This document shows positions 3,673 to 26,685 of a stretch of DNA of 27,059 bases, in pieces. The translations under genes and the position numbers were made by a program. The stretch is from Myxococcota bacterium (lineage in GTDB: Bacteria > Myxococcota_A > UBA796 > GCA-2862545): NCBI GenBank assembly GCA_039208735.1, contig JBCCQY010000124.1, positions 1 to 27,059 of the forward strand, given 5' to 3'. The notes below the pieces were generated by a model. It was not told where the DNA came from. It was given only the letters and a program-made list of their open reading frames with translations, and searched no databases. Numbering within the stretch: the stretch's first letter is position 1; every line of letters starts with the position of its first letter.

Positions 3673-4313
3673 TGGACATCGTCATTCTGCTCTTCGAGAG
3701 GCTGACCGCCCTCGACGCCATCGGTCCATTCGAGGTACTCAGCCAACTGCCTGGAGCAACGGTTCGTTTCGCGGGAAAGACCACGGGCCCCGTCCGCACC
3801 GACAACGGCATGCTGGGGCTGCAGGTGGACGTTCCTCTGACCGCGATCGACCGTGCGGACCTCCTGTTGGTGCCGGGGGGCTGGGGCACCCGGGCGCTCG
3901 AAAGCGATGAGGAAGTTCTCGACTGGATTCGCCGCATCGACACCACGACCCGCCACACGACGAGCGTCTGCACGGGCGCCTTGGTCCTGGGCGCGGCTGG
4001 GTTGCTCAACGGCAAACGGGCGACGACGCATTGGGCGTTGCTCGATCGGCTCACCGAGTTCGGCGCTCTCCCCACGTCCGAACGGGTCGTTCGGGACGGC
4101 AAGGTGACCACCGCGGCCGGGGTGAGCGCGGGCATCGACATGGGATTGAGGTTGGTGGCCGAGTTGGCGACGCCTGAATTCGCACAAGCGGCCCAACTCG
4201 GTATCGAGTACGACCCGCAGCCTCCGTTCAACACAGGCAATGCCCAGACGGCTCCCCCCAAACTGGTCGAAGCGCTGCGGGCTCGACTGCGGAAGGCCGA
4301 AGCCGAAGCTTAG
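3672..4313 (+). CDS. DJ-1/PfpI family protein (isonitrile hydratase/ThiJ-like)
   Basis: LDAIGPFEVL, LLVPGG, nucleophile elbow SVCTGA, ATTHW, TAAGVSAGID and IEYDPQPPF. Start is ATG 3672 or GTG 3669. Confidence 0.93.
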   Translation: MDIVILLFERLTALDAIGPFEVLSQLPGATVRFAGKTTGPVRTDNGMLGLQVDVPLTAIDRADLLLVPGGWGTRALESDEEVLDWIRRIDTTTRHTTSVCTGALVLGAAGLLNGKRATTHWALLDRLTEFGALPTSERVVRDGKVTTAAGVSAGIDMGLRLVAELATPEFAQAAQLGIEYDPQPPFNTGNAQTAPPKLVEALRARLRKAEAEA

Positions 4314-7300
4314 ACGTCCGCCTCGTCGCTTTCGGCCCGTCGCCGCATCGCCTCTCGGTCCATCGCAATGGTCTCGGCCAGCTCGGCTTCGTCGAGCAAC
4401 CCCTCCGTCTCGGAAAGGTCGATGTCATCCTCCGACAGCTCGTCGGCCTCAAAGGGCGCCGGATGCTCCACGTCGAGGGTGGCGCCCGGCATTTCGGTCA
4501 CCGCGTCCTCGGCGTAGGGGGGCGGCTCGGGTTCCCGATCGGGCCCCGCGACCGACGCCGGTGCAGGTGCGGGTCCGGGCTCCGGCGCGGGTTCCGGCTC
4601 CGGCTCCGGCGCGGGTTCAGCGTCGGGAGCGAAGGGGTCGTGTGCGTCGAAGGTGGACGCTGGCCCCGGGTCGTCGGGAACGGGCCGGCGGTAGTTGGGC
4701 AATGGCGCCGTATCGGGGTTGATGGGCTCCGCCTTGAACGTGGGCTCGGGGGCCGGCTTAGGCTTCTTCACCTCGCGCACGGCTTCGAGCTGCTCGAGGG
4801 CTCGGTTGCGCTCGCCGGGCCGCGCGGACCGCTGTTGGGTACGGGCACCACTGGGCGCTTCGTTGAACGCAGTCTCGAGGGCCGCTTGCGCTCGACGGAG
4901 ACCGCGCTCCACCAGGTCGATGGACGCATCGCTCGGCTCGGCCGCACCGGCCCGTTGTGCGGCATCTCGCGCCGCAGCGGCGGCTTCTGCGGCCCGGCTG
5001 GCATGCCACTTGGCATCTTCATCCACCACCCGCTCGAGCAAGCTCTGCGCATCGAGGCGCATGGCTTCGGCCTCGTCGAGGGCGCTGCGCAGGGCCTGTC
5101 GCACCTTCGCGGCCTTGCGTTGGGCTTCGATCTGCAATGCCATTTGGGCCGTCTTCATGGCCTGCTGGGCCCGGGTCAGCGCCTTGCGGAGGCCTTCAAG
5201 GCCCTGGGTGACGCCGTCCGGATCGCCCGCCTCGGCCGCCCGCTGCGCCAGTTCGACGGCGGTGGCGGCATCCGAGTCGGCCAGATCGGCCTCCGAAAGC
5301 ACGCCATAGGCACTCTTCGGCGCGATGCGACGCACCTCTGCGGTCTCCGCCCGCACCTTTTGGAGGAGGTCTTCAGCCGGCCGAACGTCGGTGGCGGCCT
5401 GTCGACGACGTTGCGCCTGCCAGACCCGGATGGCCTCCTGAAGCGCCTCGAATCGCGCCAACACATCGGAGGCAGCTTTCTGCGCGACCTCGGCGCGGGC
5501 CTTGGTCGCCTCGAGTCCGCGTGCCCCTTGAACGGCCACCACCGCCTGATCCACACCGACCAACGCCTGTCGTAGGGCCTGGTGTTGCTGCTTGAGTTCG
5601 GGCGGAGCTTCCTGAGGGAGATCCGGCACGAGCAGCGAAGCGACACGCTCTTTGGCCTGCCCGGCCTGAAGCTGCACGTGGCGAATCTCAACCTCTTCCC
5701 GTGCTCCCTTGGCGGCCACCTCAGCGGCCTCCGCCGCTTGTCGAGCCACCTCAGGGGCAATCGCCTTGTCGGCCCGCTCGGCAGCCGCGATCGCGTCATC
5801 GACCTTCCGCTGAACCTGTTCCGACGACAGCTCCCGGAGGCACTCCCGCGCGGAACTCACCGCAGCGTGGGCCTGCTCCCGGGCTTCGGCACAGGCTTGC
5901 TGGGCCTGATCGGCCAACGTGCTCGCCAATTGTGCCGCTTCACTGGCCCGAGCCGCCGCGGCCTGGGCTTGGTCGACCGAGGTGGCCGCCATCGCCGCAT
6001 CAAACGCTCGACGAGCGGCATCCACCGCCTTCTCAACGGTCGATCCTCGGGCCCGCAACAGCACGGCTCGAGCGGCTTCGTTGGCCTCGCGGGCGAGGGC
6101 CCGTTCGGCCTTGAGCTGGGCCCGATAGGCCTGCGCTTCTTGCTCGGCATCGGCGAGCGCCGCTTCGGCAGCTTCGGCCGCACGGGCTGCCACTTCCACC
6201 ACGCTCGCGTTGCTGGCTTGGGCCACCGCTTCCTTGGCGGTGGCAAGCGCCTTGTGCATCGCCTCGGTGTCAATTTCGTCGAGCAGCGTCTGCACGCCGC
6301 CCAAAGCGCGCTGCGCCCGCCTTCGGGCCGTGGTGCGTTGCTCGACTTCTGCGTGAGCCACACGCTGGGCCTGGGCGATCGCCTGTTCGGCCTCGATCAA
6401 GGCCTCTTTGGCGGTTTCGAGGTCTTCTGCCGCCGCCGCCCGGTCGGCCGCCGCCCTTGCAATCTCGACCCCCTGCTTGACCTCCTCGGCTCCCGACAAG
6501 CCCAACAGCCCTTCCGCGCGACCCCGAGCGTCATCCGCCCGCTGACGAACCGCGGCCACGCGCTGACGCCGATCCGCGATGGCGGCTTCTGCCCGCTCTG
6601 CGGCCTCTTCCGCCGCTTTCGCCGCCGGTTCGGTCACCGCAGGATCCGCACTCGCCTTCACCGTTTCGGTGAGGTTCTTCACGATGGTCAGCGAGTCCTT
6701 GACGACGACCTCATCGGCCTCCCAACTCGCCTGTTCGATTCGCCGCATCGCAGCTGCGACGCGCGCGCGATGGGCTTCGACAACGCCGCGACTCGCGTCC
6801 GTGATCGACAACGCCTCGTTGGCGGAGGTCTCGGCCCGTTGGGCGGCCGCCATGGCGACCGGTACCTCGGTTGCAGACAGGGCCTCATCCGCGGCCACTC
6901 GCGCCGCTTCCACCGCTCGCATCCCATCTGGTGGCGCACGTCCGATGAGTTCTTCGGCTCGGTTGCGGGCCGTCACCGCGCGCTCCTGGATTTCCTCCAG
7001 GGCCTGCCGGTGCTCGGTGGCAAGCTTCACCGCCGAGTTTGCTGCATACTCCGCCTGATCGGCAGATTCTTCGGCCGCTGCGACGTTGATGGCGCGCCCC
7101 ACTTCCTCCGAGGCCTTGCTCGCGGACTCAATCCATTGCCGAACTGCGGCGGGGGCGCCAGGCCCGTCGATCTGACTCGCCCGGTTCGCAGCTTCCCGGG
7201 CGCGATGACGCAGTACCTCAAGCCGCGAATCCACCACCGATTGGGCCGCTTCCGCGGACGCAGCCGCAGCCGCAACCTCGGCTTGCGCCGTCTGCGTGTC

Positions 7301-10300
7301 GACCGCGGCCCCAATCCGGTCGAGCGCGTCTCGAATCGCCTGCACATGTTCCGCAAAGCGAGGATCGTCGAATCCCTCCCCGGCCGTCTCGATGCGCAAG
7401 AGAATCGCGAGGCCCTGCTCTTGCACCGCCTGTCGGGCCGTCGCCTGCTCGGATTGGACCTTCTGCTGGACGGCATCCAGGGCCTGCTGGGCAAGGGCTG
7501 CCGCCTGCTGCATGGCGGGCAGGGTTTCGTCTTCCTCGGCCCGTCGAGCCGCCGTACGGGCCCGCGCCACAATCTGCCGGACCTCCTCGTCGCTCGTCTC
7601 GTCGAGCAACGCCTCGGCCCGGGCGAGGGTGGCGATGGCTTGCTGGGCCGTATCCGCAACCGCGCCAAGGTATTCGGACAGCGCGCCGTCCGCCTGTTCG
7701 GCAAGCGCTTCGATGCCGTTGACGAGAGCGTTGAGTTCCGCGGCATCCCGGGTGGCTCGTGCCTCGGCGAGACGCAGGTCCGCCGCATCTGCGATGCGCA
7801 CCACGTGCTCGGATTCCTCGGCCGCAGTGCGCGCCCGTTCGATTCGGGAGACCGCCGCCGTGGCCCGCACAATCTCGGCTTCACGCTGGTCCGCAAACAC
7901 GGTTGCATGCTGTTGGGCCTGCAAGGCTGCGGCCTCGATCTGCTGCAACGCCACCTCAGCGGCATCGAGCGAATCGGCAGACTGAAGCACCGCCATCGCC
8001 GCCTCACCCTGCGACGCCAACTCCCGTACCACCGCAACCTGCGTCTCGGTGGCCGCCCGCTGCGCCGCCCGCAACGCCTCCTGGGCCCGGGCCCGCAGCT
8101 GATCGTGCACCTCGGCCAACCGGCCCGCCGCCTTGTGCGCGGCTTCGGCGGCCATGGTCGCTGCGTCCGCGGCCCGAGTGGCGGCGGCTAACGAATCGGC
8201 GTCCTCAGCATCCCCGACCGCCTGGCGAGCCTCTTCGATGGCCAAACGCACATCGGGGCCATCCGAGCGCGCCAATGCGGCCGACGCGCGTTCGACCGCG
8301 GCCTGGGCGCGCGCGATCTCCACCGCCTTCGCGGCCACCTCGGCGCGGTCAGCGGCCTGGACGACCTCGTTGCAGGACTCGGCGGTGGCTGCGATCTCAC
8401 CCGCGACTCGCGCTGCCTCGGCGTACAGACGGACTTCACCTTCGTCATGACGCTCGAGGACGCGGTGCGCATGATCGACCGCGGCCCGTGCCCGAGCCCG
8501 CGCGGCGGACATCGCCTCGTTGGCCACCTGCCGTGCGGCCTGCATCGACATTTCGGCCGCCTCGACCGCCTGCGCCGCAAGTTCGGGGTCGTTGGTGGTA
8601 CGAACCTGCTCGACCGCGGTGTGGACCGCCTCGACGTGGTGACGCACTCCGGGCTGGGATGCACTCTCCAGCAGGGCATTGGCCGCCACGATGGCACTCT
8701 TCGCCCGTTCATGGAGCGAGTGCAGGTGGGCCACCTCGGCCTGCCGATGCTGGTGAGCCTGCTCAAAGGCCGCTCGGGCGGCTGCGAGATCGCGCTGGAT
8801 GGCGTTGAGGTCATCGCCTTGCTCGGCGCGGTTCGCGAGATCGAGGGCTCGGGTAAACGCAGCCTGGAGTTCGACGGCATGGGCCTCCGACTGCTCGGCC
8901 AGGATGCGGCTGACCAACGCTCCCGCGGCCGCTTGGGCCTCTGAGATCCGCTGGACCATCGCCTCCCGACCTGCTCCGGCGATCGATGCCACCTGGTCGG
9001 CCACGTCCTCGGCACGCTGGGCCAGGTCTTGCGCCGCGGTGGGATCCGCGGTCGCCTCCAGTTGCGCAACCAGGGCCTGGACCTGTTCGACCATCGCCCC
9101 TAGGTCGACCGGCTCCGTCGCCTCCCCCTCCCGCTCGACCACCATCTCCGCCGGTGCCGCAAGGTGTTCGGCCTCCGCCGTAGCGAGCGCTTTTCGTCCG
9201 CGTTCCTTGGCATCCTGGAGTTGCGCCTGGGCCTGCGCGAGTTCGACCAACCAGCCGTCGACGGTGTTGCGGATCTGCTCGACTTCACCTTGGAGAACCG
9301 CGGGATCGAGGACCTCTTCGAGTTGATCCGCCTGGGCCCGTAAGGCGTCGAACCTCTCAACGTCGATGGAGTTTGGAAGCCTTGCGATCGTCTGTCGCGC
9401 ACGGTTTCGGAGCTCTTGCAGCTCGGCCTGCACCCCGCCAACCTGGCGCATCAACTCTCGGGCCAAGCTCGCCACCTCGGCCGCCGCCGCTTCTGCGGGT
9501 TCGGGAAGCTGTGCCGCTTGCGTCGCCTCCACCTGGTTGCGGAGCTGCTCCAAGGGGCCGGCCAGCGAAGCCGCCACCACAGTGGCCGCCGCCATCGTGA
9601 CCTGTTCCAGCTGGTCCGAGGCCTGCTGACGGGCTCGGGTGACCCGCCGGGTCAGCTGCTGGCGAAGCTCGATGGCCCGCTCGGCGGCTTCAGTCGCCAC
9701 CACGAGCTGGGTTGCGGCCTGGGTTTGGTCCTCCTGCACGGTGGCGAGGGCGCGCCCCACAAGCCCCTGCACCGCCGCGATTTCGTCGTGCGGCATCGCC
9801 TCATAGGCTTCGGTCACCTGCGCATGGGCGGCGATGATCTGGCTCACCGCTTCGTTGGCATCCACCTGGATCGCCTGCAAGAAGCTCCCCACCGCCTGGG
9901 CCGCGGTCGCCTCCTGGCGCGCCCGCTCTGCGGCCGCTTTGGCCACATTCAGGTTCGGTGCCGAGCGCCCCTCGATCGCGGCCTCTCGTGCGGCTTGGGC
10001 ATGCCGGGCAAGCTTCTCGGCGTGTTCGGGGTGCTTTCGCTGCAGCTCCTCGATGGTTCGCACATGACCTTCGGCCTGGCGAACCGAACGGGCTTGGTCG
10101 GCGAGTGTCTCCATCTCCTCGATTTGTGACTGCAGCTCGCCCATCGCGGCAAGCTGCTCCTCGTCGGTTGGAGGGGCTCCCTCGGGGAGCAGCTGGGTGG
10201 ATCGGTACGACAGCCGCGCCTGGGTCAGGCGTTGCTGGGCTTCATCGGCCAGGCGGGGCAGCCAACTGGCTTCGGCGGCGAGCGCCTCGAGCTGAGCCCA

Positions 10301-11641
10301 TCGCTTCGCCGCTTCGCCGGCCCGCTCCTGCACGCGCTCCACCCGGGCCGAAGCCATTTGCTCGACGGCATGCGCCAGCTTCTGGTGGGCGGTTTCAGCG
10401 TATTCTTTGACCTTGACAAGGGCTGCCTCCGCTTCGTCGGCCGCCTGGTTTGCCGTCTCGCCATTCGGCGCACTGCCCGCGCGCAGCAGCGCCTGCTGCA
10501 CCTGACGAGACGACTCTTCCGCCGCCGCCATCGCCACATCCGCGTCGTTCACGATCTCGGAGATCCGTGGCAGGGTGCGGTCGAGTTCACTCTGACGTTG
10601 GTCGAGCGCCGTCACGAGCAGGGTCACGGTCTCATGTGCTTCATCGACGGCACGCTGGGCACGTTCCTCGGCGGCTCGACGTTCTGGATCGTTGGGTAGG
10701 AGATCGGCAATGCGAAAGGCGGAAGGAAGGTCTTCTTCCGCATCGGTGATGAACTCTGCAGCGTACTGAACCGCTTCGGCCAGCGAACGACCTTGGGCCT
10801 GGCGGCTCGCCCGATCGACGGCAGCCCACCATCGTTCGGGGTCGGGCACGCGCCCGTCGGTCCGAAGCATCGCCGACACCACGGTCGCGACCACCTCCGG
10901 GACTTCTTGGAGGCTCGTTCGCACATCTCCCCGTTGCGCCAACGCCCATACCGCGGACGCACTGCCCCGATAGACGGGGAGGCCCGTGGCAAGCTCAACC
11001 GCCATTAAGCACAGCGCGAACAGGTCGCTCTCGACCCCCTCCGGGTGGCCCTCGAGCCGCTCGGGCGGCACGTAGCGAAGTCGGGTGGGAGCAGGGAGCT
11101 CCGTCCCCCCACTGAGGTACGCCTCAACATCGAAGGGTGGAATGCCGTAGCCCAAAACCACGGGATGCCCTGTTTCATCGACGGTAGCGAACCACGCGTC
11201 GAGCCCACCGTGATTCAATAGCCCACGATCATGCCCCGCAATGCCCACATCGATCATCGTGCGGGCCGTGCTGGCGAGCCATTGGAGGACGGCCCGGGGG
11301 CCCATCCCGCCATCTTCAGCAAAGACCGCCGCAAGCTCATGGACCGAACGCACGGGGCGACCCGTACGGTAGACCAGCAAGCCTGGCCGCACCGCGGCGA
11401 GTGGAGCGATGCCGTCGACGAGGGGCCACTCGAGAAAGTCCCGCACCGGCGCGAGGGCATGGCCAAACGCCTCGTGGATGGGTCGGGGATCGGCGAACGC
11501 CACGGCAACGTGATGCCCCGTGGCATGACTAAGATCGATGAAATCAGCGATGGGACCGAGCAATTTACGGCCCATCGGACGCATTTCTTCGAAGCGCGCG
11601 GTTCGGGAAGCCGACCGGTTCGTGGGGTCGCTGCTGGCCAA
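4310..11641 (-). CDS. Giant 2443-aa protein: N-terminal pseudokinase, long Ala/Glu/Arg helical repeat rod, Pro/Glu linker and acidic tail
   Basis: Uninterrupted ORF with TTG start and GGAG upstream. Kinase C-lobe motifs RYVPPE and SDLFAL are present, but the catalytic motifs are degenerate. Confidence 0.88.
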   Translation of the reverse strand: MASSDPTNRSASRTARFEEMRPMGRKLLGPIADFIDLSHATGHHVAVAFADPRPIHEAFGHALAPVRDFLEWPLVDGIAPLAAVRPGLLVYRTGRPVRSVHELAAVFAEDGGMGPRAVLQWLASTARTMIDVGIAGHDRGLLNHGGLDAWFATVDETGHPVVLGYGIPPFDVEAYLSGGTELPAPTRLRYVPPERLEGHPEGVESDLFALCLMAVELATGLPVYRGSASAVWALAQRGDVRTSLQEVPEVVATVVSAMLRTDGRVPDPERWWAAVDRASRQAQGRSLAEAVQYAAEFITDAEEDLPSAFRIADLLPNDPERRAAEERAQRAVDEAHETVTLLVTALDQRQSELDRTLPRISEIVNDADVAMAAAEESSRQVQQALLRAGSAPNGETANQAADEAEAALVKVKEYAETAHQKLAHAVEQMASARVERVQERAGEAAKRWAQLEALAAEASWLPRLADEAQQRLTQARLSYRSTQLLPEGAPPTDEEQLAAMGELQSQIEEMETLADQARSVRQAEGHVRTIEELQRKHPEHAEKLARHAQAAREAAIEGRSAPNLNVAKAAAERARQEATAAQAVGSFLQAIQVDANEAVSQIIAAHAQVTEAYEAMPHDEIAAVQGLVGRALATVQEDQTQAATQLVVATEAAERAIELRQQLTRRVTRARQQASDQLEQVTMAAATVVAASLAGPLEQLRNQVEATQAAQLPEPAEAAAAEVASLARELMRQVGGVQAELQELRNRARQTIARLPNSIDVERFDALRAQADQLEEVLDPAVLQGEVEQIRNTVDGWLVELAQAQAQLQDAKERGRKALATAEAEHLAAPAEMVVEREGEATEPVDLGAMVEQVQALVAQLEATADPTAAQDLAQRAEDVADQVASIAGAGREAMVQRISEAQAAAGALVSRILAEQSEAHAVELQAAFTRALDLANRAEQGDDLNAIQRDLAAARAAFEQAHQHRQAEVAHLHSLHERAKSAIVAANALLESASQPGVRHHVEAVHTAVEQVRTTNDPELAAQAVEAAEMSMQAARQVANEAMSAARARARAAVDHAHRVLERHDEGEVRLYAEAARVAGEIAATAESCNEVVQAADRAEVAAKAVEIARAQAAVERASAALARSDGPDVRLAIEEARQAVGDAEDADSLAAATRAADAATMAAEAAHKAAGRLAEVHDQLRARAQEALRAAQRAATETQVAVVRELASQGEAAMAVLQSADSLDAAEVALQQIEAAALQAQQHATVFADQREAEIVRATAAVSRIERARTAAEESEHVVRIADAADLRLAEARATRDAAELNALVNGIEALAEQADGALSEYLGAVADTAQQAIATLARAEALLDETSDEEVRQIVARARTAARRAEEDETLPAMQQAAALAQQALDAVQQKVQSEQATARQAVQEQGLAILLRIETAGEGFDDPRFAEHVQAIRDALDRIGAAVDTQTAQAEVAAAAASAEAAQSVVDSRLEVLRHRAREAANRASQIDGPGAPAAVRQWIESASKASEEVGRAINVAAAEESADQAEYAANSAVKLATEHRQALEEIQERAVTARNRAEELIGRAPPDGMRAVEAARVAADEALSATEVPVAMAAAQRAETSANEALSITDASRGVVEAHRARVAAAMRRIEQASWEADEVVVKDSLTIVKNLTETVKASADPAVTEPAAKAAEEAAERAEAAIADRRQRVAAVRQRADDARGRAEGLLGLSGAEEVKQGVEIARAAADRAAAAEDLETAKEALIEAEQAIAQAQRVAHAEVEQRTTARRRAQRALGGVQTLLDEIDTEAMHKALATAKEAVAQASNASVVEVAARAAEAAEAALADAEQEAQAYRAQLKAERALAREANEAARAVLLRARGSTVEKAVDAARRAFDAAMAATSVDQAQAAAARASEAAQLASTLADQAQQACAEAREQAHAAVSSARECLRELSSEQVQRKVDDAIAAAERADKAIAPEVARQAAEAAEVAAKGAREEVEIRHVQLQAGQAKERVASLLVPDLPQEAPPELKQQHQALRQALVGVDQAVVAVQGARGLEATKARAEVAQKAASDVLARFEALQEAIRVWQAQRRRQAATDVRPAEDLLQKVRAETAEVRRIAPKSAYGVLSEADLADSDAATAVELAQRAAEAGDPDGVTQGLEGLRKALTRAQQAMKTAQMALQIEAQRKAAKVRQALRSALDEAEAMRLDAQSLLERVVDEDAKWHASRAAEAAAAARDAAQRAGAAEPSDASIDLVERGLRRAQAALETAFNEAPSGARTQQRSARPGERNRALEQLEAVREVKKPKPAPEPTFKAEPINPDTAPLPNYRRPVPDDPGPASTFDAHDPFAPDAEPAPEPEPEPAPEPGPAPAPASVAGPDREPEPPPYAEDAVTEMPGATLDVEHPAPFEADELSEDDIDLSETEGLLDEAELAETIAMDREAMRRRAESDEADV
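4560..4620 (-). repeat. Pro/Glu/Ala low-complexity linker (EPAPEPEPEPAPEPGPAPAP)
   Basis: Repeated GGCTCC/GGCGCGGGTTC units at the DNA level. Confidence 0.7.
5690..9870 (-). repeat. About 19 degenerate ~74-aa tandem protein repeats (predicted three-helix units)
   Basis: Three consecutive units counted at exactly 74 aa: IADRRQ...AQRV, AHAEVE...AEQE and AQAYRA...ASTL. Recurring pattern R.RA..A..RAE.LL....EV..AVE.AR.A...A.....A..AA..AE.AA. Boundaries are approximate. Confidence 0.75.
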
Positions 11642-11745
11642 GGTCGCTCCAGGGTCAGGGGAGCTTACTGTGCCGCCACCTCGTGTGCCGCCGATCCCAT
11701 CGCCGCGCGGAACACATCACGCCGAAAGGCATGGAGGTACGCGCG

Positions 11746-14783: not shown

Positions 14784-16427
14784 CTATCGCACCCGCCGGA
14801 TCTGCAAGCTCAGACGGGAGCGACTCGGCTTACCGGTGGCCGTAAGCTCGAAGACCGCTCCGTCGTCATCGGCCACGTAGAGCACATCGCCCTCCGCAAC
14901 CTGGACCTTCTCGTGGGTGATGTCTCCAAACACGGCCTCGTTCGTGCTCAGCTTCTCGGTCAGTTCCGCATCTTCGTAGAACCCGACGGTCGTGTAGGTG
15001 TATTCACGGTCGGGAACCCCTGTGCGACGAGGAATATCGTCGGGTTGAACGAACCAGAGCCAGTCCTCAACCGTGTCGCCATCGATGCGTGGCCGGTAAA
15101 AGACGTCCGGCGCCCCCACCCCATTTTCGGTGACCGCGACGGCCAACGGCCGCACGGCTTCGGGGTTGGCGGCCAGGTTCGCCTCCACCTGCTCGGTCAG
15201 CCCTTTGGCATCGAACCCAAGCGAAACGTCGGCGAGTTCGAAGATGGCCTGCGCCTGTCCCTCGACGATGCCCCCATCATGCAGCCGGGTTTGCGAGATC
15301 TCCAGCACGATGTCCCACAACAGGCGCGGAGGAGGCGGTGGTCCCACATCGGCAAACGTCGTGAACGTCGCCACCCCCGCCTCGTCGAGGACAGCGTTGA
15401 ATACCGGCGTTCCGGTGCCGAGGCGGTAGGTGAGTTCGATGGGGTCCAGCTCAACGGCTTTGGCAAACGCCGCTTCGATGAGCACCCGCTCAAAGGCCCA
15501 GGGCGGCAACGAAAAGGCAGGGCTGCCAAACCGATCGTCAAGCGCCGGCGTAGGTCCTTGAAACTCCGCATCTTCGGTCACCACCAAGGCCAGGGAGCCC
15601 ACCGACGGCTCGGGCACCAGCCCTTCGATCGAAATCCAATCCGGCCGCTCGGTCGCAAACAACGATTCGATCTGGCTCCCAATGGGGTTTTGCCGAGCCC
15701 CACTCGCGTCGGTCAAGTCGACCCCCGCAAAGGGCAGCGGATTGGCGTTGACGAGAAACGCCACCGCGAAGTTCTCGCCCAGCACCTGGACATCCGACGC
15801 CGCGGCCAAGAAACCGGGGTGTCGTCCCAACGGCGTGTCGGCGGGCCCAAAGCGTTCCGCAAGGTCGTCAAAGCCACGCAGCAGGTCGCCCATCGACACG
15901 GGCAACGCGCCCTCCCGGGCGGCGGGATGGCTGGCCACCAGACCCTGTGCGAGCGCGGGCACGAGCACCTCTGCGGGAAGCAGGGGCTCGGTCACCCCCA
16001 CCGCGAAGAGGTCTGCGAGGGGTCGCGCGATGGGAATGCCCACCGCGCCCGACAGGGCCTCCAGCGGTTCGAGCGACGTGCCCTCGAGCGACAGCGAGTC
16101 CGCCGAGGCCGCGATGAGCTGTTGAAGGTTCGAGGACGCAGGATCGAGCCGTTGTCGCTCGGCCGCCGACAGCGCCCCAAGACGTCGCACGATGCCATCG
16201 ACCATCGGGGTCAACGGCAAGTCGACAAGCCACACCTCATCGAGGACCTCTGGCGGAAGGGCGCGCAGATCGGCCTCATCGAGTTCGAGGCGGAACCCTT
16301 CCACATCGAAGGGAAAGGTGTGCAGCACGACTTCGCGAGTGTCGCCCACCATCAGGGGCATCGGGGATGGATCGACCGGAGGCGTCCCGGTCATGCATGC
16401 GAACAGGGCCCACATCACCGTGCTCAT
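14784..16427 (-). CDS. Hypothetical lipoprotein B (547 aa), paralog of 16424-18175
   Basis: Start reassigned to ATG 16427 by ATGA overlap with the upstream stop. Lipobox-like LFAC. Shares blocks with lipoprotein A. Confidence 0.8.
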   Translation of the reverse strand: MSTVMWALFACMTGTPPVDPSPMPLMVGDTREVVLHTFPFDVEGFRLELDEADLRALPPEVLDEVWLVDLPLTPMVDGIVRRLGALSAAERQRLDPASSNLQQLIAASADSLSLEGTSLEPLEALSGAVGIPIARPLADLFAVGVTEPLLPAEVLVPALAQGLVASHPAAREGALPVSMGDLLRGFDDLAERFGPADTPLGRHPGFLAAASDVQVLGENFAVAFLVNANPLPFAGVDLTDASGARQNPIGSQIESLFATERPDWISIEGLVPEPSVGSLALVVTEDAEFQGPTPALDDRFGSPAFSLPPWAFERVLIEAAFAKAVELDPIELTYRLGTGTPVFNAVLDEAGVATFTTFADVGPPPPPRLLWDIVLEISQTRLHDGGIVEGQAQAIFELADVSLGFDAKGLTEQVEANLAANPEAVRPLAVAVTENGVGAPDVFYRPRIDGDTVEDWLWFVQPDDIPRRTGVPDREYTYTTVGFYEDAELTEKLSTNEAVFGDITHEKVQVAEGDVLYVADDDGAVFELTATGKPSRSRLSLQIRRVR

Positions 16428-18175
16428 GGGACCGCCTGGATGGCGACGTCGATGGTGGTCGCGAATGGGGAGGAGGCCTCCACATCCAGGCGGTAGGTCC
16501 CCCCCCATGCATCCTGGACAAACACCGTCGACGAGCCCACCGGCGGATACCAGCCCTCCCGTTTGCCAAGCGAAGTGCTCACCCGACGATTCAACGCCGC
16601 ATCCTCAAAGAACCCAGGTCGGGGGGCTGGGGTAGCTGCAGGCAGATCGTCGGCGACCACGATCTGAAGGGCGGGCGTGCCATTTGGGTCCAGGGCAAAG
16701 ACCAGGTCCACCGGGTCCGAACGCTCCTGGAAATCCCCAAACAGTGCATCTGCAATCGTCGAGGATTGCGCCTGTAAATTGGTTCGAACAGCCGCCTCCA
16801 CGTCGGCGACCGTCAGTCCCGTCGGCAACCCTGACAGGTCGAACGAGGGGTTGGCCTGGCCCTCGTCAAAGGCGTAGGTGTCGAAGGCATGCAGGTTGAC
16901 CTCGGCCACCTCGAGGAGCAACTCCCAGATGTACTGCTCGTCGGGGGGGTCTCCAATGTCGGCGAGAACGTCGAAGGACAGGAAACCCGGCGGCGCGCCC
17001 TCTTGTCCCAGGCCTACGGTGACGGCGGGAATGAAGATCAAGAACGTGTAGGTGCGTTCGTAGACGCGCCCTTCGTTCTCGCGCCGGGCCGCATCGGCGA
17101 TGGCCCACTCCAGCGTCCAGGGCTCAAAGCTCCACACACTCTCGGTGCCCACCGGTTGTCCGGGCAAGTTGTCGTAGCAAGCCACATCGCCTTCGCAGGC
17201 GATGGACTTGGTCGGTGCCTCGTTGAGGGTAAGGCTCAAATCGACGGTGGGACCATCCACAAGCCCGGTGATGGCGAACCGATCGGGGTCGAGAAAGTCG
17301 AATTCCACCGGATCGGAGCCGGACGAGGCCACGAGATAGCCTTTGCCGCCCGCCGACAGGTCAAGGCCGTCCAGCACGGCCAAGTTCGAATCCATGGTGA
17401 GGGCCATGCCAAAGTCGTCCGCCAACACCTGGCCGAAAGGCGGAGGATCTACGTTGACAATACCAGGATGACCGTTCGCGGGGCCGAGGGTCGTGGCCAG
17501 CGTATCCAAGTCCGACAAGGCGTCGGCCAGCGTCACGGGCAGCCGACCGTCCGAACTCACCGCTGGGTGGGAGGCCAACCACCCATCCCGCAAAGCCTCA
17601 ACGAGCGCTTCGGTGCCCACCGCCAAGTCGTCCAACTCGCGCTCGAGGGTATCGGCCAAGACCTGCCCAAAGCCTCCCCCGATGTTCAAGGCGTCGGCCG
17701 TAGCCGCGACCCCCTCTAGGCTCGTGCCCTCAACCCTTGCATTGTCGGGGGTCATCGCGAGAAGACGCACCATGGCAAACTCGGGTGTGCTCGCCCAATC
17801 CGGCCCAAACGAACGGCCAAGGTCCGTAGCGGCACAGTCGAAGTCTGGGTCCGACCCTTCGAAGTTCGAACCACAGGCGTCGCGGATCTGGTCGATCGCG
17901 GCGCCGAGCAAGACTTCGGGGGCAAGGTCCAACAGCTTGAGGTCGGCCGCGATGGGGCCCAGCAGCTCCGCCACCTCGTCACGTGTCATCTCGAGCGTCA
18001 GGGGCGTGGACATCGCTTCTGCGACCGATAGCGAGACGACCCGCGTGGTCGGACTCGGCTCTTCACCCGTCGTGGGGGCCGTGGGCTCGGGAGAGGACGG
18101 CGCTTCGACGTTCGGTGGAGAAGCCTCGTCGGGCGCCCGACACGCCAATCCCAATAGTGCAACCATCGCAAACAT
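16424..18175 (-). CDS. Hypothetical acidic lipoprotein A (583 aa)
   Basis: SD GAGGTG before ATG 18175. MFAMVALLGLAC lipobox followed by a Pro/Ser/Thr/Glu tether. Confidence 0.82.
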   Translation of the reverse strand: MFAMVALLGLACRAPDEASPPNVEAPSSPEPTAPTTGEEPSPTTRVVSLSVAEAMSTPLTLEMTRDEVAELLGPIAADLKLLDLAPEVLLGAAIDQIRDACGSNFEGSDPDFDCAATDLGRSFGPDWASTPEFAMVRLLAMTPDNARVEGTSLEGVAATADALNIGGGFGQVLADTLERELDDLAVGTEALVEALRDGWLASHPAVSSDGRLPVTLADALSDLDTLATTLGPANGHPGIVNVDPPPFGQVLADDFGMALTMDSNLAVLDGLDLSAGGKGYLVASSGSDPVEFDFLDPDRFAITGLVDGPTVDLSLTLNEAPTKSIACEGDVACYDNLPGQPVGTESVWSFEPWTLEWAIADAARRENEGRVYERTYTFLIFIPAVTVGLGQEGAPPGFLSFDVLADIGDPPDEQYIWELLLEVAEVNLHAFDTYAFDEGQANPSFDLSGLPTGLTVADVEAAVRTNLQAQSSTIADALFGDFQERSDPVDLVFALDPNGTPALQIVVADDLPAATPAPRPGFFEDAALNRRVSTSLGKREGWYPPVGSSTVFVQDAWGGTYRLDVEASSPFATTIDVAIQAVP

Positions 18176-18179
18176 AGGG

Positions 18180-19565
18180 TCACCTCGACGCAAAGGTGAA
18201 ATGGGAGGTCAGCGAGGCCAACCAAAGGCCGTAGCGGCCATTGGCCAGGTCGTGATCGGAGGTCGTGACGGTTCGCGGCAGGATGCCCTGCAACTTCCCT
18301 CCGACCCACCATCCCGTTCGATCGGAAAGACGAATCTGAGTTCCGCCCTTCGCAAGCAGACGATAGCCATCAGGACTTGCGGCATCGACCGTGGCGTCAG
18401 GCGAGGCGGGCGATGCCACGCCGAGGCCAGCCACCCAGGTGGCCTGCTGCACCGTGAAGTCCAGGCCCCAGGCCGGCTGCCACTGCCGATCGATGCGCAC
18501 ATTCACCGTCTCGGGAATCCCCAATTCGGGCTGTTCAAACCCTGGACTCGTGAGCACAAGGCGCGTCGCATCGTAGCGGCGCCAATCCGCCCATTCGCCC
18601 GAGAACTGCGCCTGTAGCCCGGAGGCAAACGTATGGGCGAGCCCGAGACGGACCCGGCGAGGAGTCGCGACCGAGAAGCTTCCGTCGCCTTCGATCACCG
18701 TCGGGAACGAAAGACCGATGGGCGCCAAGTCGGAGGTGAAGAAGGGATCGTTGGTGTCGACGGTGAAACGGCCCTGGAAGGTCACCGTCGAACCGTGATC
18801 GTAGCTGGCCGCAACTCGCCAATCGCCCAGATCGACCGATGCGCCGAAGGCAAAGGTGAAGCCATGAGATATGCCGCGCCGCACTGCGAAGTCCCGAGCC
18901 AGCACCTCTTGTTCGCGGACCTCGCTCGGCGCCCGCCGGCCAAAGTCGTTGGGCTGGCTGACCGGCGGCTCGGTGATCACGTCAGCAAAGAACTTCAGCC
19001 CAGCAAAATCGGTCACCCGTGCGATCGATCCTGCGCCGAACACGTAGCTCGCGCGTGCCCCCAAGCTCACCTTGCCGAGATCCACGGCGGCTCCTCCGGC
19101 GAGGTGGGAGATGAGGAGCGTGGTGTCGCGCAGGGCGAACCGCTGGGGACCTTCTTCGGGAAATCGTAGGATGGCGGCATAGGGAACGTAGGCCCCGGCG
19201 CCGAAGGTCACCCGGTCGACCGGCACGGCGACGAAGAGATCCCCCAGCGGAGCGAACGGCGTGGCCCCCACACGGTCGGTGAGCCCGGTTCGCGACGGAT
19301 CCAGCTCCGCTGGATCAGTGGGCGCAACGAGGTTCAGCTGATCGGAAAAGCCATAATTCCCCAGACGCTCCCGGCGAACGGTGACGCGGCCGACGACGGC
19401 CCCTGCCCCCACGAGAACGCTCGGGCCCTCGACGTGGGACAGCAACGCAGGATTGTAGAACAGAGCCGCCGCGTCCGCGTTCATCGGACCACTGTTGACC
19501 GACCCGACCTGTGGCGCATCGAACCCGCCGGCCTGGGCGACCGCGATAGCAAACAGCGTGATCAT
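18180..19565 (-). CDS. OmpP1/FadL family outer-membrane transporter for long-chain fatty acids or other hydrophobic compounds
   Basis: The mature N-terminus GGFDAPQVG and the NPA motif (DAAALFYNPALL) match the FadL hatch. FGAGAYVPY and amphipathic beta-strands follow. Confidence 0.85.
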   Translation of the reverse strand: MITLFAIAVAQAGGFDAPQVGSVNSGPMNADAAALFYNPALLSHVEGPSVLVGAGAVVGRVTVRRERLGNYGFSDQLNLVAPTDPAELDPSRTGLTDRVGATPFAPLGDLFVAVPVDRVTFGAGAYVPYAAILRFPEEGPQRFALRDTTLLISHLAGGAAVDLGKVSLGARASYVFGAGSIARVTDFAGLKFFADVITEPPVSQPNDFGRRAPSEVREQEVLARDFAVRRGISHGFTFAFGASVDLGDWRVAASYDHGSTVTFQGRFTVDTNDPFFTSDLAPIGLSFPTVIEGDGSFSVATPRRVRLGLAHTFASGLQAQFSGEWADWRRYDATRLVLTSPGFEQPELGIPETVNVRIDRQWQPAWGLDFTVQQATWVAGLGVASPASPDATVDAASPDGYRLLAKGGTQIRLSDRTGWWVGGKLQGILPRTVTTSDHDLANGRYGLWLASLTSHFTFASR

Positions 19566-22969: not shown

Positions 22970-24322
22970 ATGAATCGTCTCAAGCCGCCTGCTCCCCGCT
23001 TCGACATCGTGGCGGACCTCGACACTCCGGTGTCGGCGTTCCTAAAGCTAGGTCCCCTCAAACCCCGCTACCTCCTCGAAAGTGTCGAGGGGGGAACCCA
23101 CCAGGCACGCTACAGCTTGATCGGGTTTGGGGAAGCCGAAACGATCGTGCTTCGCAGCACGGATCCGACGCCGCAGGGCGTTGTGGCGTGGCTCCGAGAG
23201 GCCCTCGGCCGCGCCCCTGTGGTGCAGGCATCCCCAAGCCCGTTTTCCGGCGGTCTCGTGGGCTTCACGAGCTACGACCTGGTGCGCCGCATCGTGGGGC
23301 TCGCGCCACGGCCGGGCGAAGGCCTCGATGCGGCGTACCTCGCCATGCGCTCAACGCTGGTGTTCGACCACGTCACCCGATGCATGGCCTTGCTCCACGA
23401 TGGGCCCGAAGACGAGGCCCGTGCACTGCGCGGGGAGGTCGAACGGCTCCTCGAGGGAGCGGTGCCCAAACCTCGCCCCCTGACCGCAGGGCCGGCCCAG
23501 GCCACCCTCAACCAGGCCAACTTCATCGACCGTGTGGCCACCGTCAAGGAGCACATTCGCGAGGGTGATGTGTTTCAGTGTGTGCTGTCTCTGGCGATGT
23601 GGGGCGAGGCGGAAGGCGACGCGTTTTCTGCCTACCGGGCACTGCGGCGGCTCAACCCGTCGCCCTACCTCTACTACGTGGATGTAGCGGGGGTTCAGGT
23701 GGTGGGCTCATCCCCCGAAGCCCTCGTCAAGCTCGACGGCGACCAGGCCACCCTGCGACCCATCGCGGGCACGCGTCCCCGAGGCAGCACGATGGAAGAC
23801 GACCTTGCCCTCGAAGCGGACCTCTTGGCCGACGCCAAGGAGGCGGCGGAACACGTGATGCTGGTCGATCTGGCTCGCAACGATCTAGGCCGCGTCGCGG
23901 TCCCGGGGACCATCCGGGTCGCCCCCAGTCGCTCGATCGAGCGCTACAGCCACGTCATGCATCTCGTCAGTGGGGTCCAAGGCACCCTCGAAGCCCCTCA
24001 TGACGCCTTCGATCTCTTTGCTTCCGCCTTCCCTGCGGGCACCGTCACGGGCGCGCCTAAGGTGCGGGCCATGCAGATCATCGACGAACTTGAGCCCGAA
24101 CCCCGCGGGATCTACGCGGGCACCGTCGGCTACTTCGGCCACCACGGTCAAATGGACCAGGCCATCGCAATTCGTACGTTGACCTTCGCAGATGGCCGAT
24201 ACCGATACCAAGCGGGCGCCGGCATCGTCGCCGACAGTGTTCCCGAATCCGAGCACGCCGAGTGCCTCGCCAAGGCCGCGGCCCTTCGAACCACCCTGGA
24301 CCAGGCGGGAGGTCCGGCATGA
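22970..24322 (+). CDS. trpE: Anthranilate synthase component I
   Basis: DLDTPVSAF, LLES, GDVFQCV, NPSPY, SSPE, PIAGTRPRG, EHVMLVDLARND, FPAGTVTGAPK and QAGAGIVADS. Confidence 0.96.
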   Translation: MNRLKPPAPRFDIVADLDTPVSAFLKLGPLKPRYLLESVEGGTHQARYSLIGFGEAETIVLRSTDPTPQGVVAWLREALGRAPVVQASPSPFSGGLVGFTSYDLVRRIVGLAPRPGEGLDAAYLAMRSTLVFDHVTRCMALLHDGPEDEARALRGEVERLLEGAVPKPRPLTAGPAQATLNQANFIDRVATVKEHIREGDVFQCVLSLAMWGEAEGDAFSAYRALRRLNPSPYLYYVDVAGVQVVGSSPEALVKLDGDQATLRPIAGTRPRGSTMEDDLALEADLLADAKEAAEHVMLVDLARNDLGRVAVPGTIRVAPSRSIERYSHVMHLVSGVQGTLEAPHDAFDLFASAFPAGTVTGAPKVRAMQIIDELEPEPRGIYAGTVGYFGHHGQMDQAIAIRTLTFADGRYRYQAGAGIVADSVPESEHAECLAKAAALRTTLDQAGGPA

Positions 24323-24912
24323 GCCACCTCGTCATCATCGACAACATCGACTCCTTTACCTTCAACCTGGTCCAGGCGTTCCGCCAGCTCCCTACGCACG
24401 TCACCGTCTTGCGGCACGATGTGGCGGTTGAGGACGTGCTGGAGCACGCTCCGAGCCACCTCGTGGTGTCGCCCGGCCCCGGCCGCCCTGAACACGCCGG
24501 CAACAGCTTGGCCATCCTGGATGCGTTCGCGCGCACCGGACGCCCCATCCTCGGCGTGTGCTTAGGCCATCAGTGCATCGCGAGCGTCTTTGGCGGCCGC
24601 ATCGTGCACGCCCCGACCCTGCGCCACGGCAAGACCTCCTCTGTCCACCACGACGAACGCGGCTTGTTCCGCGGTTTGCCCTCGCCCTTTCCCGCAGGTC
24701 GCTACCACTCGCTCGTCGCCGAAGAGGCCTCTTTGCCCGACGATCTCGAGGTGTCCGCCCGCACGGACGATGGCGTCGTGATGGCGATTCGACACCGCAG
24801 CCGGCCCATCGTGGGCATCCAGTTCCACCCTGAAAGCGTCCTCACCCCCGATGGGGACGCCCTGCTCGCCAATTTCCTCGCCCTGCCAAGCGAACGTAAG
24901 GAGGCCGCGTGA
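24319..24912 (+). CDS. trpG: Anthranilate synthase component II (glutamine amidotransferase)
   Basis: IDNIDSFTFNL, SPGPG, GVCLGHQ, RYHSL and QFHPES. ATGA overlap with trpE sets the start at 24319. Confidence 0.96.
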   Translation: MSHLVIIDNIDSFTFNLVQAFRQLPTHVTVLRHDVAVEDVLEHAPSHLVVSPGPGRPEHAGNSLAILDAFARTGRPILGVCLGHQCIASVFGGRIVHAPTLRHGKTSSVHHDERGLFRGLPSPFPAGRYHSLVAEEASLPDDLEVSARTDDGVVMAIRHRSRPIVGIQFHPESVLTPDGDALLANFLALPSERKEAA

Positions 24913-25877
24913 TCGACCGGCTACTCGAAGGTGAACACCTGGAAGAACCTGAAGCCATGGCGTTGGTGGGCGTGCTGACGCGCGAGGAGGCTCCGGAGGC
25001 GCTCAAAGCCGGGCTCCTGGTCGCATTGCGGGCCAAAGGCGAAACGGCGACGGAACTCCGAGGCATGGCCAAGGCCCTGCGCAACGCAGCCGTGCCCATC
25101 GAACTCGGTGCAGTGCTCGACTCCGCGGGCACCGGAGGCGACGGCAAAGGCACGGTCAACCTGTCGACCGCCGCCGCCCTCGTGGTGGCCGCAGCCGGGT
25201 ACCCGGTGGCAAAGCATGGCAACCGGTCGGTGTCGAGCCGCTCCGGCAGCGCCGACGTGCTCGAGGCGCTGGGCATTCCCTTGCGCGCCGATGCGACCCA
25301 GGCCAAGGCCCAATTCGATGCCCATGGATTCACGTTCCTGTTCGCACCGACCTTCCACCCCTCGATGAAAGCGGTCGCGACGGTTCGTCGGGGCATGGGC
25401 ATCCGGACCGCGTTCAACCTGATTGGCCCCCTTTCGAACCCTGCTCGGCCCGCCACCCAGCTGATTGGCGCCTTCGATCGTGATGTGGCCGAGCGACTGG
25501 CCTATGCGTCGGTGGGCCTGGTCCCTCGGGCATTCGTGGTGCATGGATTGTCCGGCCACGACGAAGCCACCCCCATCGGTCCCTTTGTTCGGTTCGCGGT
25601 CGAGGGCACCACCGTCTCGGAGGCGACCATCGACCCGAAGGAGCGCTACGGCGTGCCCCGATGCACGCCCGATGCCCTGAAGGGCGGCGACGCTTTGGAC
25701 AATGCGGCGCGGCTCACCGAGGTGTTCCGGGGAGCCCGAGGCCCCATCCGCGATGCGGTGGTGCTGAATGCGGCGTTGTTGCTTGAAGCGCACGGCGTGG
25801 CCGACGCCTTCCCTCGCGTGACCGCGGCCCTCGATGACGGGGCGGTGCATGCCTTAGTGGAGGCGCTTCGTGGCTGA
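24909..25877 (+). CDS. trpD: Anthranilate phosphoribosyltransferase
   Basis: GTGGDG, NLST, KHGNRSVSSRSGSADVLEALG, FLFAPTFHP and RTAFNLIGPL. GTGA overlap with trpG. Confidence 0.96.
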   Translation: MIDRLLEGEHLEEPEAMALVGVLTREEAPEALKAGLLVALRAKGETATELRGMAKALRNAAVPIELGAVLDSAGTGGDGKGTVNLSTAAALVVAAAGYPVAKHGNRSVSSRSGSADVLEALGIPLRADATQAKAQFDAHGFTFLFAPTFHPSMKAVATVRRGMGIRTAFNLIGPLSNPARPATQLIGAFDRDVAERLAYASVGLVPRAFVVHGLSGHDEATPIGPFVRFAVEGTTVSEATIDPKERYGVPRCTPDALKGGDALDNAARLTEVFRGARGPIRDAVVLNAALLLEAHGVADAFPRVTAALDDGAVHALVEALRG

Positions 25878-26685
25878 TGCACTCCCCCCCGTCCTCGAGG
25901 AACTTGGCCACCGGGCTCGGCAACGCGCCGATCAGCTCGATCGCCGCACCCTGCTCGCCCAACTCCGCGACGCCCCGTCCATCGTCAACCTCAAACTGGG
26001 TCCCTTCGGAATCATCGCGGAATTCAAATCCGCTTCGCCCTCGGCCGGCGCCCTGACCGCGCCCGGATCGCGCGACACCCAAGTGCTGGCCTACGCGGAA
26101 GGAGGGGCCGCCGCGATCAGCGTGCTCACCGAACCCACGCGGTTTGGTGGCTCCCTCGACGACCTTCGCGCGGTCGCGGCATTGGTGAATCGTCCGGTGC
26201 TCCGTAAGGACTTCGTGGTCGACCCCCTGCAGGTCCTCGAAGCGCGCGCCGCCGGGGCGAGTGGCGTGCTCCTCATGGCCTGCCTGCTGGACGATGACCC
26301 CCTGGTTGCGCTGGTCGACAAAGCCGGAGAGCACGGACTGTTCGTGTTGGCTGAGGCGCATGACGAAGCCGAACGGGCTCGGGTGATGGACGCCTTTCGC
26401 AGGGTGGGGACTTCGCCTGACTTGGGGCTCGTCGGCATCAACACCCGCGATTTCACAACGTTGACCACCCATTTGGACCGGCTTGCCGCACTTGCGCCAC
26501 CCTCGACCTCCACGCGACCATGGGTGGCGGAAAGCGGGTTGTCTTCCCCCGAAGACGCGGCCATGGCGTCCCGTCTGGGGTACCGATTGGGCCTGGTGGG
26601 CACCGCCCTGATGCGGTCGGACAACCCGGCCCAGGCGCTGCGTGACCTCATTGCGGCCGGACGCCGCGCTCGGGAGGTCGCATGA
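25870..26685 (+). CDS. trpC: Indole-3-glycerol phosphate synthase
   Basis: IIAEFKSASPSAG, ISVLTEP..FGGS, PVLRKDF, GINTRD, VAESG and LVGTALM. Confidence 0.95.
   Translation: MADALPPVLEELGHRARQRADQLDRRTLLAQLRDAPSIVNLKLGPFGIIAEFKSASPSAGALTAPGSRDTQVLAYAEGGAAAISVLTEPTRFGGSLDDLRAVAALVNRPVLRKDFVVDPLQVLEARAAGASGVLLMACLLDDDPLVALVDKAGEHGLFVLAEAHDEAERARVMDAFRRVGTSPDLGLVGINTRDFTTLTTHLDRLAALAPPSTSTRPWVAESGLSSPEDAAMASRLGYRLGLVGTALMRSDNPAQALRDLIAAGRRAREVA

Follow-up and report, generated by a model that had tools for sequence, protein, structure and literature searches.

What does a bacterium do with a 2443-residue, probably cytoplasmic protein that joins a kinase-like head to a very long helical rod? The question is raised by one gene in a 27,059-nucleotide contig of a Myxococcota bacterium (JBCCQY010000124.1; the whole contig is hereafter the window), which is contig C124 of genome G000 (9.4 Mb, 288 contigs, 93% complete). 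A sequence-only reading of the window had proposed a dead-kinase-headed molecular ruler, filament or tether. The analysis favors the last of these, and the idea of a pseudokinase-headed cytoplasmic scaffold or tether is supported by sequence comparisons and structural models. Four observations underlie this choice: the loss of the catalytic residues, the rod repeat, the selection acting on the rod and the descent of the head from an order-wide family. We give about an even chance to the reading that the protein is a non-catalytic cytoplasmic tether, which would link a kinase/envelope module to a second site. The features of the gene are collected in Table 1.

The open reading frame (ORF) at 4310-11641 is a real gene. 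Its codon bias is coding-like (GC1/2/3 = 0.81/0.50/0.76), the G001 ortholog retains the same TTG-started N-terminus, and the translation contains the head motifs that had been listed. Long plus-strand ORFs (e.g., 5582-8191) are shadow ORFs and were dismissed as antisense frames. Collinear orthologs are present in three of the four same-genus genomes searched (G001, G002 and G004; stop-to-stop frames of 2362, 2334 and 2806 aa); in the fourth, G003, only a more distant rod paralog was matched. When the gene is compared with G001, the ratio of nonsynonymous to synonymous substitution (dN/dS) takes values of 0.34, 0.15 and 0.11 in rod parts 1, 2 and 3 and of 0.17 in the head. The rod is thus under purifying selection, and 113 non-Ala columns C-terminal of the head are invariant over six orthologs. 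No transmembrane (TM) segment is seen in a 19-residue hydropathy scan, because the best window reaches only 1.55 and falls in the kinase F-helix; no signal peptide is visible by inspection of the translation. Both results agree with what had been claimed. The head of P0003, labeled 'Myxococcales bacterium' at NCBI, is 45% identical to that of the window protein, so that the source is likely a myxobacterium. Close relatives of this 68%-GC gene also carry the labels Enterobacteriaceae (title of record L036) and Bacteroidota, which are probably mislabels or mixed bins.

The head is predicted to adopt the Hanks-type Ser/Thr kinase fold, with a five-stranded N-lobe, helix αC and a helical C-lobe. 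The AlphaFold2 (AF2) model displays a complete two-lobed fold with a predicted local distance difference test score (pLDDT) of 94.4 and a predicted template modeling score (pTM) of 0.93. The C-lobe scaffold recognized earlier is therefore kept in the model, and the N-lobe is complete as well. Kinases are the top Foldseek matches, and the structural comparison tool VIA gives a Z of 21.4 to MEK1 (root-mean-square deviation (rmsd) 3.1, 253 aligned) and 19.9 to PknB. An ESM Atlas search with the head returns generic kinase clusters. The Pfam Pkinase match to the head is weak by itself (E 0.0035); a profile of 29 family heads matches Mycobacterium tuberculosis PknE over positions 12-276 of 292 (E 5.7e-19).

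The catalytic elements are lost, as had been stated. Alignment to PknE places A48 at the β3 Lys, G146 at the HRD Asp and G164 at the DFG Asp, and F151 occupies the position of the catalytic-loop Asn. In the translation, VAVA lies at 45-48, NHGGLDAWF at 143-151, GYG at 164-166, RYVPPE at 189-194 and SDLFAL at 205-210. The earlier claim that the Gly-loop is missing holds for its motif, which is reduced to a single Gly (G29-P30 in the PknE alignment), but not for the loop structure, which is still present. The head is read as probably catalytically dead because the β3 Lys, the HRD Asp and the DFG Asp are all absent. The same loss runs through the family. In a census of 151 heads (150 best representatives and the window protein; the mis-framed row L028 was removed from the alignment), the β3 Lys is found in 1/149, the HRD Asp in 18/150 and the DFG Asp in 0/150. 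No row has two catalytic residues, and none of the 18 heads with the HRD Asp has the β3 Lys. Family heads keep an H-G-x-L-x-P-W-R loop, a G-Y-G/A segment and R-Y-x-P-P-E-R, and the activation segment is at least as long as that of active kinases.

Judged by stated features only, in the parts of the sources available to us, the head appears to fit none of the seven described bacterial pseudokinase families (10.1101/2025.01.12.632604; PMC12599244). As far as these sources describe them, the GLW pseudokinase (GLW for HRD, poly-Leu β3, C-terminal TM segment) is ruled out by the HGG or HGS at HRD and the missing TM segment of the present family. The head also does not display the features given there for CP1 (COG3899 ATPase), DYD (DYD motif, Arg at β3), DLHK (HRD Asp kept), ActPs1 (G-helix loss) and ActPs2 (large inserts). 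The profiles of the 42 bSTK families of the kinase atlas and the supplements of the preprint (10.1101/2025.01.12.632604) could list some of these heads.

The head belongs to a family that was found in a single order. With the 29-relative head profile (E 1e-30 or below; 251 genomes across the phylum, nine candidates scored per genome), the head was detected in 29 of the 36 genomes that belong to the window's order and in none of the 215 other genomes. When 172 heads are classed by their downstream region (P0106, apparently a chimeric assembly of a glycosidase fragment and a rod, was excluded), 71 end in a tandem pair of ubiquitin-like (Ubl) domains, 39 carry only a low-complexity tail, 37 carry a long Ala-rich rod, two carry winged-helix/STAND/TPR regions and 23 are fragments or partial rods. 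The Ubl class was assigned with a profile of our own; one of its members matches YukD at E 4e-4. GAF/SpoIIE extensions also occur. Across the family, a single dead-kinase module is combined with extensions of several types: Ubl, disordered, STAND and rod. The window's genome alone has five heads: the giant itself, a second rod and the STAND form (both on C157), a tail-only form (C11) and a Ubl form (C184). On C157 (G000:C157:1-14529), as in G001 (L030:932-14935), the second rod-bearing head and the head-winged-helix/STAND/TPR protein flank an extracytoplasmic function (ECF) sigma factor and its neighbor.

The architecture for which a search of Myxococcota genomes had been proposed is narrower than the head. 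Among the matches listed, 13 of the 25 genomes in the window's family have head-bearing frames of at least 1,800 aa, compared with none of 16 from the order's other families; rod forms are likewise limited to one family among the genomes searched. Within the window's clade, the giants span ~1,900 to 3,360 aa. In an IQ-TREE phylogeny of 57 rows, 27 of 28 rod heads group together (SH-aLRT 91, not starred), a STAND form falls within this group, and the base is not resolved; FastTree (178 rows) places the rods at the base with weak support. The suggestion that the rod was gained once, from a Ubl form, comes for this reason mainly from the distribution.

The rod is repetitive. The sequence-only reading had described about 2000 aa of Ala/Glu/Arg helix; the composition agrees (residues 311-2290: 26.5% Ala, 11.4% Glu, 9.4% Arg and 8.5% Gln), but the helix is not continuous, and a 74-aa repeat that breaks it twice per unit had been overlooked. 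Autocorrelation at lag 74 over aa 900-2000 reaches z 6.2, with shuffles attaining at most 3.7; for the entire rod, z is 3.9, less than the highest shuffled value of that run (4.2). The period is stronger in the orthologs (z 9.3 in G004 and 7.2 in G002). Autocorrelation and a profile revealed the repeat, which self-BLAST of the window protein does not detect. The repeat profile, built from G002 and G004 units only, finds 12 full units of at least 40 bits in the window protein and none in each of five block shuffles; an earlier count without composition correction was set aside in favor of this shuffle-controlled one. With the weaker flanking matches, the rod comprises ~26 units. In each unit, an Asp/Pro cap separates a long amphipathic stretch, which has an Ala-rich core (core positions are 60-80% Ala), from a short helix, and another cap follows this helix. 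Two columns per unit hold 68-74% helix-breaking or capping residues, and adjacent columns hold 16-32% Pro. Near residues 785-1160 of the G004 rod (L017), several extra units are nearly identical, indicating recent tandem amplification of the repeat.

In the structural models, this layout becomes a chain of three-helix bundles. A monomer comprising aa 1523-1965 (six of the ~26 units) was modeled with AF2 from a 14-row alignment. The five models have pLDDT values of 91-94. In the best one (pLDDT 93.6, pTM 0.53), helices of 49 and 19 aa alternate across 3-aa loops, and the chain folds back exactly at the cap columns. Stretches of ~75-80 aa superpose on antiparallel three-helix bundles (VIA Z 8-9.5). 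The alignment with EzrA is loose and takes in 398 of 443 residues (Z 7.9, rmsd 24 Å). A Foldseek search with the rod gives no match at E 0.001 or below; its weak rows, all with E above 0.04, include BibA (probability 0.82), EbhA (0.75) and EzrA (E 0.24). The ESM Atlas returned no usable match to the rod. The rod is predicted to consist of three-helix bundles of spectrin/EzrA topology joined by a continuous helix and, as modeled, is not a plain coiled coil. A hand estimate of (49 - 19) x 1.5 Å gives ~4.5 nm per unit; a straight rod of 26 units would thus measure ~100-120 nm. Only a genus-level group has the regular 74-aa period. Because the helix-breaker periods of other giants differ (near 30 and 110-125 aa), these proteins would share the design with larger bundles. 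Beyond the genus, rods no longer align by BLASTP, and the head and overall layout persist.

The predicted likeness to EzrA, spectrin and dystrophin lies in the head-to-tail antiparallel three-helix bundles on a continuous helix, with modules at the ends. In contrast to the ~100-122-aa units of spectrin and EzrA, the units of the window protein are 74 aa and Ala-cored, and the protein has no membrane anchor. It has ~26 units compared with the five counted in the EzrA paper, which described EzrA as the sole bacterial protein of this type known at the time. No Pfam spectrin or EzrA match to the window protein was obtained. Long chains of small three-helix bundles are also found in the Gram-positive surface proteins Ebh and BibA, whose stalks are exported and anchored to the wall or membrane; the window protein shows no such export or anchor signals and no sequence match to them.

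The order-wide operon of the short relatives provides a context for the head. Twenty head+Ubl loci, mostly the best match per genome, were examined; two more ended at contig ends. In all 20, the gene directly after the head+Ubl gene combines an FHA-like domain with a hydrophobic segment and an SLT transglycosylase, and a small membrane protein follows. An active kinase comes next in 18 of 20 loci, and one of the other two is cut there. The operon rows are L033:705-6816, L034, L035, L028, L038-L047, L050-L055 and, in the window's genome, G000:C60:17736-21815 (L037); a gene for a YukD-like membrane protein often lies 2-3 kb upstream. The operon looks like an undescribed envelope-remodeling module that shares parts with type VIIb secretion. 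In the accessible part of a recent preprint, a pseudokinase, a Ubl domain and an FHA domain are parts that assemble the type VIIb system (YukC, YukD and the FHA domain of YukB; 10.1101/2025.01.24.634720). The operon has this trio, in its case with an FHA-like domain, and EsaB/YukD and the FHA domains of EssC/YukB are the counterparts, as far as that source describes them. Unlike EssB/YukC, the pseudokinase has no TM segment and is fused to the Ubl domains, and its partner bears a lytic transglycosylase instead of ATPase domains. The neighbors of the giant gene are unrelated to type VIIb secretion, and no WXG100 gene was found in G000 at its 93% completeness. The same genome has 43 FHA matches.

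A second parallel is the actinobacterial pseudokinase MviN (ActPs3). In the available part of its description, a tail phosphorylated by PknB recruits FhaA and controls wall synthesis, and the docking switch is a Thr just behind the domain (PMC12599244). The present family resembles MviN in its Hanks fold, in the loss of all three catalytic residues and in the context of a cell-wall enzyme, and the short relatives keep a conserved Thr where, according to that source, MviN has its docking Thr. In the short proteins, a T-x-x-hydrophobic motif stands right behind the head in 69 of 118, and a Thr ~10 aa behind it is at least 90% conserved in 20 short forms. By comparison with MviN as described there, the head has no activation-loop deletion, TM segment or flippase fusion and is not actinobacterial; the window protein lacks the post-head Thr motif and bears a 1,940-aa rod.

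The Pro-rich region and acidic tail noted earlier are present (aa 2261-2443, with 39% Asp + Glu in residues 2390-2443) and form the least conserved part of the protein. A matrix trained on the short forms finds a good Thr site behind the head in none of 27 giants. In five of them, all from the window's clade, the best site scores at least 15 bits within the last 110 aa, and at most 2 of 40 shuffles reach these scores. An acidic-T-x-x-hydrophobic pattern occurs 18 times in the last 150 aa of 12 clade members compared with 10.0 expected (6 of 1000 shuffles are as high; the members are kin and not independent), and once compared with 3.7 expected in the 16 other giants, which have basic tails. 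Upstream acidic residues and a hydrophobic +3 residue are the pattern reported for PknA-dependent sites in the portion of the source consulted (PMC7164672). As a lead only, a tail Thr is a candidate phosphorylation or FHA-ligand site. A regular-expression count (51 compared with 8.1) was set aside, having been designed post hoc and reflecting mostly one inherited position. A similar expression is not specific to the head family because it matches 30 of 65,251 six-frame segments of G000. Other giant subfamilies (L021, L022, L026, L027, L032 and P0084-P0148) have Arg-rich basic C-terminal tails as opposed to the acidic tails of the window's clade, and many of these end in a short amphipathic motif, D-x-L-L-x-R-L-R/K.

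Under the tether reading, the head would act as a protein-docking module. Its likeliest target would be the membrane-bound module encoded with the short relatives (the FHA-like/TM/lytic transglycosylase protein, the small membrane protein and the active Ser/Thr kinase) or a paralogous FHA or kinase partner. The rod, predicted to be monomeric, spectrin-like and ~100 nm long, would hold the tail up to ~100 nm away and offer position-specific binding sites. The tail would bind a second complex, perhaps switched by Thr phosphorylation, by analogy with the recruitment of FhaA by the MviN tail. A possible partner is encoded in the window at 1538-2365 on the minus strand, 2 kb downstream of the giant gene: a 275-aa kinase-domain-only Ser/Thr kinase with intact motifs (Pkinase E 3.5e-45). 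G001 has a kinase-only gene 1.3 kb from its giant gene (L016:15245-16072).

Several points weigh against this reading. The giant gene lies outside the conserved operon, and the operon of G000 (C60) has no upstream pseudokinase, its Ubl paralog being located elsewhere, on C184. The FHA call is weak, because just 2 of 21 operon partners match PF00498, at E 0.058, and a PDB sequence search with this partner gave no match. The head's ancestral partner may have been lost, because the αG region that is conserved among Ubl-type heads has diverged in the window's clade. The rod prediction covers six of ~26 units, modeled as a monomer with pTM 0.53 and with no Foldseek match at E 0.001 or below, and its VIA Z values lie within the range that the tool terms a common arrangement for helical bundles. 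For the tail, 22 of 27 giants have no strong terminal Thr site; the T2424 site of the window protein scores 3.5 bits only and ranks second within the protein, and L016 and P0001, its two closest orthologs, lack the acidic-T-x-x-hydrophobic pattern in their last 150 aa, as does P0009.

A bolder form of the tether reading is rather unlikely: the protein could be a bacterial counterpart of dystrophin or talin, a phosphorylation-switched mechanical linker in Gram-negative cells. By this analogy, the pseudokinase of a kinase/FHA/lytic-transglycosylase envelope module would have gained a ~100-nm chain of force-labile bundles, and a phosphothreonine docking motif would have ended at the far end. The arrangement would have arisen once, in one family, and would then have been duplicated and retuned by adding or resizing units.

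Among the alternatives, the one that survives best, itself unlikely, makes the rod the working part: a long platform or polar hub with many sites, where kinases and FHA proteins would collect along its length, with end-to-end tethering incidental. Rod parts 2 and 3 are constrained like the head (0.15 and 0.11 compared with 0.17), unit-specific residues are kept across orthologs and the tail is least conserved, all of which favors this explanation. However, many of the invariant residues are Leu, Val, Arg and Glu at repeat positions, which folding alone could explain, and the failure of rods to align past the genus while the head and layout persist also counts against it.

We consider it doubtful that the rod is a force-bearing spring or sensor, in which small Ala-cored bundles would unfold under load and connect the cytoskeleton with a machine for motility or of the envelope, as the bundles of spectrin and talin unfold under force. 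The spectrin-like chain topology and the Ala-rich core agree with this analogy, and the genome has a full-length GltG-like protein (315 bits, under the 650 cut-off). However, no motility gene lies near any ortholog in the neighborhoods examined, and a CglB search yields only a weak partial match. The link to motility or polarity suggested by the sequence-only reading is similarly unsupported, the neighbors being housekeeping genes.

A dimeric coiled-coil filament of the Scy/FilP type, with Ala-rich non-heptad periodicity, is very improbable. The likeness to these Streptomyces proteins lies in a small N-terminal head that precedes a very long, helical and Ala-rich scaffold of the cytoplasm, and in the Ala/Glu/Arg make-up; the rod was modeled as a monomer only. 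Scy and FilP are described, in the part of the source available, as dimeric coiled coils with Ala-rich hendecad cores and a DivIVA-like head (PMC9858780); the hydrophobic period of the rod, ~3.7, is near the hendecad value given there. In contrast, the helix of the window protein is broken twice per unit by the two capping columns and their Pro-rich neighbors, the confident AF2 models form three-helix bundles, the best of them turning back at the caps, and the head is a pseudokinase rather than a DivIVA-like motif. The earlier comparison with the coiled-coil scaffolds of myxobacterial motility fails on the same caps and bundles.

More improbable still is a precise ruler that sets the length of a structure in tape-measure style, another of the earlier proposals. 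The collinear proteins of G000, G001, G002 and P0009 are nearly equal in length (2315-2443 aa), which favors a ruler. However, the G004 rod carries a 211-aa insertion, members of the clade vary in length from ~1,900 to 3,360 aa, the 74-aa period is clear in the genus-level group only, and no secretion, pilus or tail genes are adjacent in the neighborhoods examined, nor was a WXG100 gene found in the genome. A fixed ruler is unlikely because unit number and period vary among relatives. Least probable are a head with a new, SelO- or SidJ-like catalytic activity, consistent with the loop retained by the family but not with the loss of its Pro and Arg in the window protein (A149 and F151) or the missing metal-binding Asp, and an exported surface stalk, which the weak BibA and EbhA rows recall but which sits poorly with the lack of a TM segment or visible signal and with the cytoplasmic-type partners (Ubl, winged-helix/STAND/TPR and GAF/SpoIIE) of other family members.

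The tether reading concerns a protein that matches no described family in the Pfam, NCBIfam, structure and literature searches, in agreement with the earlier impression. Neither the rod nor the protein as a whole is covered by any family of Pfam or NCBIfam, and NCBIfam returns 0 families for the window protein and its G002 and G004 orthologs. A search with rod aa 948-1965 among 8000 scored candidates of 1343-4276 aa found six proteins, itself and five relatives known from the head search, all annotated 'hypothetical'. A literature search, with subscription literature mostly outside its coverage, found no description of a pseudokinase-rod architecture among the titles and abstract openings listed. 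The head and the rod are each of a known kind; what appears new is the combination of the two, together with the small Ala-cored unit and the order-restricted family. The protein represents a candidate bacterial pseudokinase family, which occurs in a single order of the genomes searched, and it adds a cytoplasmic bacterial rod of ~26 predicted spectrin-like units, which is within the range of animal spectrins. In a Gram-negative lineage, the order-wide operon brings together the parts known from type VIIb secretion and from MviN/FhaA control. We know of no cultured host of the protein; fragments are testable in vitro.

Table 1. Features of the giant pseudokinase-rod gene in window coordinates.
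Feature	Position	Strand	Description
Whole gene	4310..11641	-	2443 aa, TTG start; collinear orthologs in G001, G002, G004
GGAG Shine-Dalgarno-like site	11647..11650	-	5 bases ahead of TTG, read directly from the sequence
Pseudokinase head, aa 20-300	10742..11584	-	Predicted complete N- and C-lobe; A48, G146, F151, G164 at catalytic positions
Rod part 1, aa 321-947	8801..10681	-	~8 irregular helical-bundle units (predicted); fastest-evolving rod part (dN/dS 0.34); repeat profile matches weakly (8-24 bits)
Rod part 2, aa 948-1965	5747..8800	-	~14 regular 74-aa units, each with a long and then a short helix, both followed by an Asp/Pro cap
Rod part 3, aa 1966-2260	4862..5746	-	~4 irregular terminal units, strongly conserved (dN/dS 0.11)
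Tail, aa 2261-2443	4313..4861	-	Pro-rich then acidic; probably disordered; poorly conserved
Candidate Thr site T2424	4346..4381	-	Acidic-T-x-x-hydrophobic context near C-terminus; weak match

Rod part 3 contains the invariant residues W2074, G2139-D2140 and W2212-H2213. Around the giant gene, the order of the housekeeping genes is partly conserved. A DUF547 gene adjoins it in the window and in G013 and lies two genes away in G002. A fused methylmalonyl-CoA mutase is encoded nearby in G001, G002 and G004, and lipoyl synthase in G004 and G013. Elsewhere in the window, a FadL/Toluene_X-type outer-membrane channel gene is followed by two paralogous genes for lipoprotein-like proteins of ~580 aa without a Pfam match (14784-19565, minus strand); these adjoin a TetR gene and a metal-dependent hydrolase, possibly as a lipid uptake unit. 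The plus strand at 22970-27059 carries an ordinary trp operon with trpE, trpG, trpD and trpC, as well as a probable trpF that is truncated where the contig ends.

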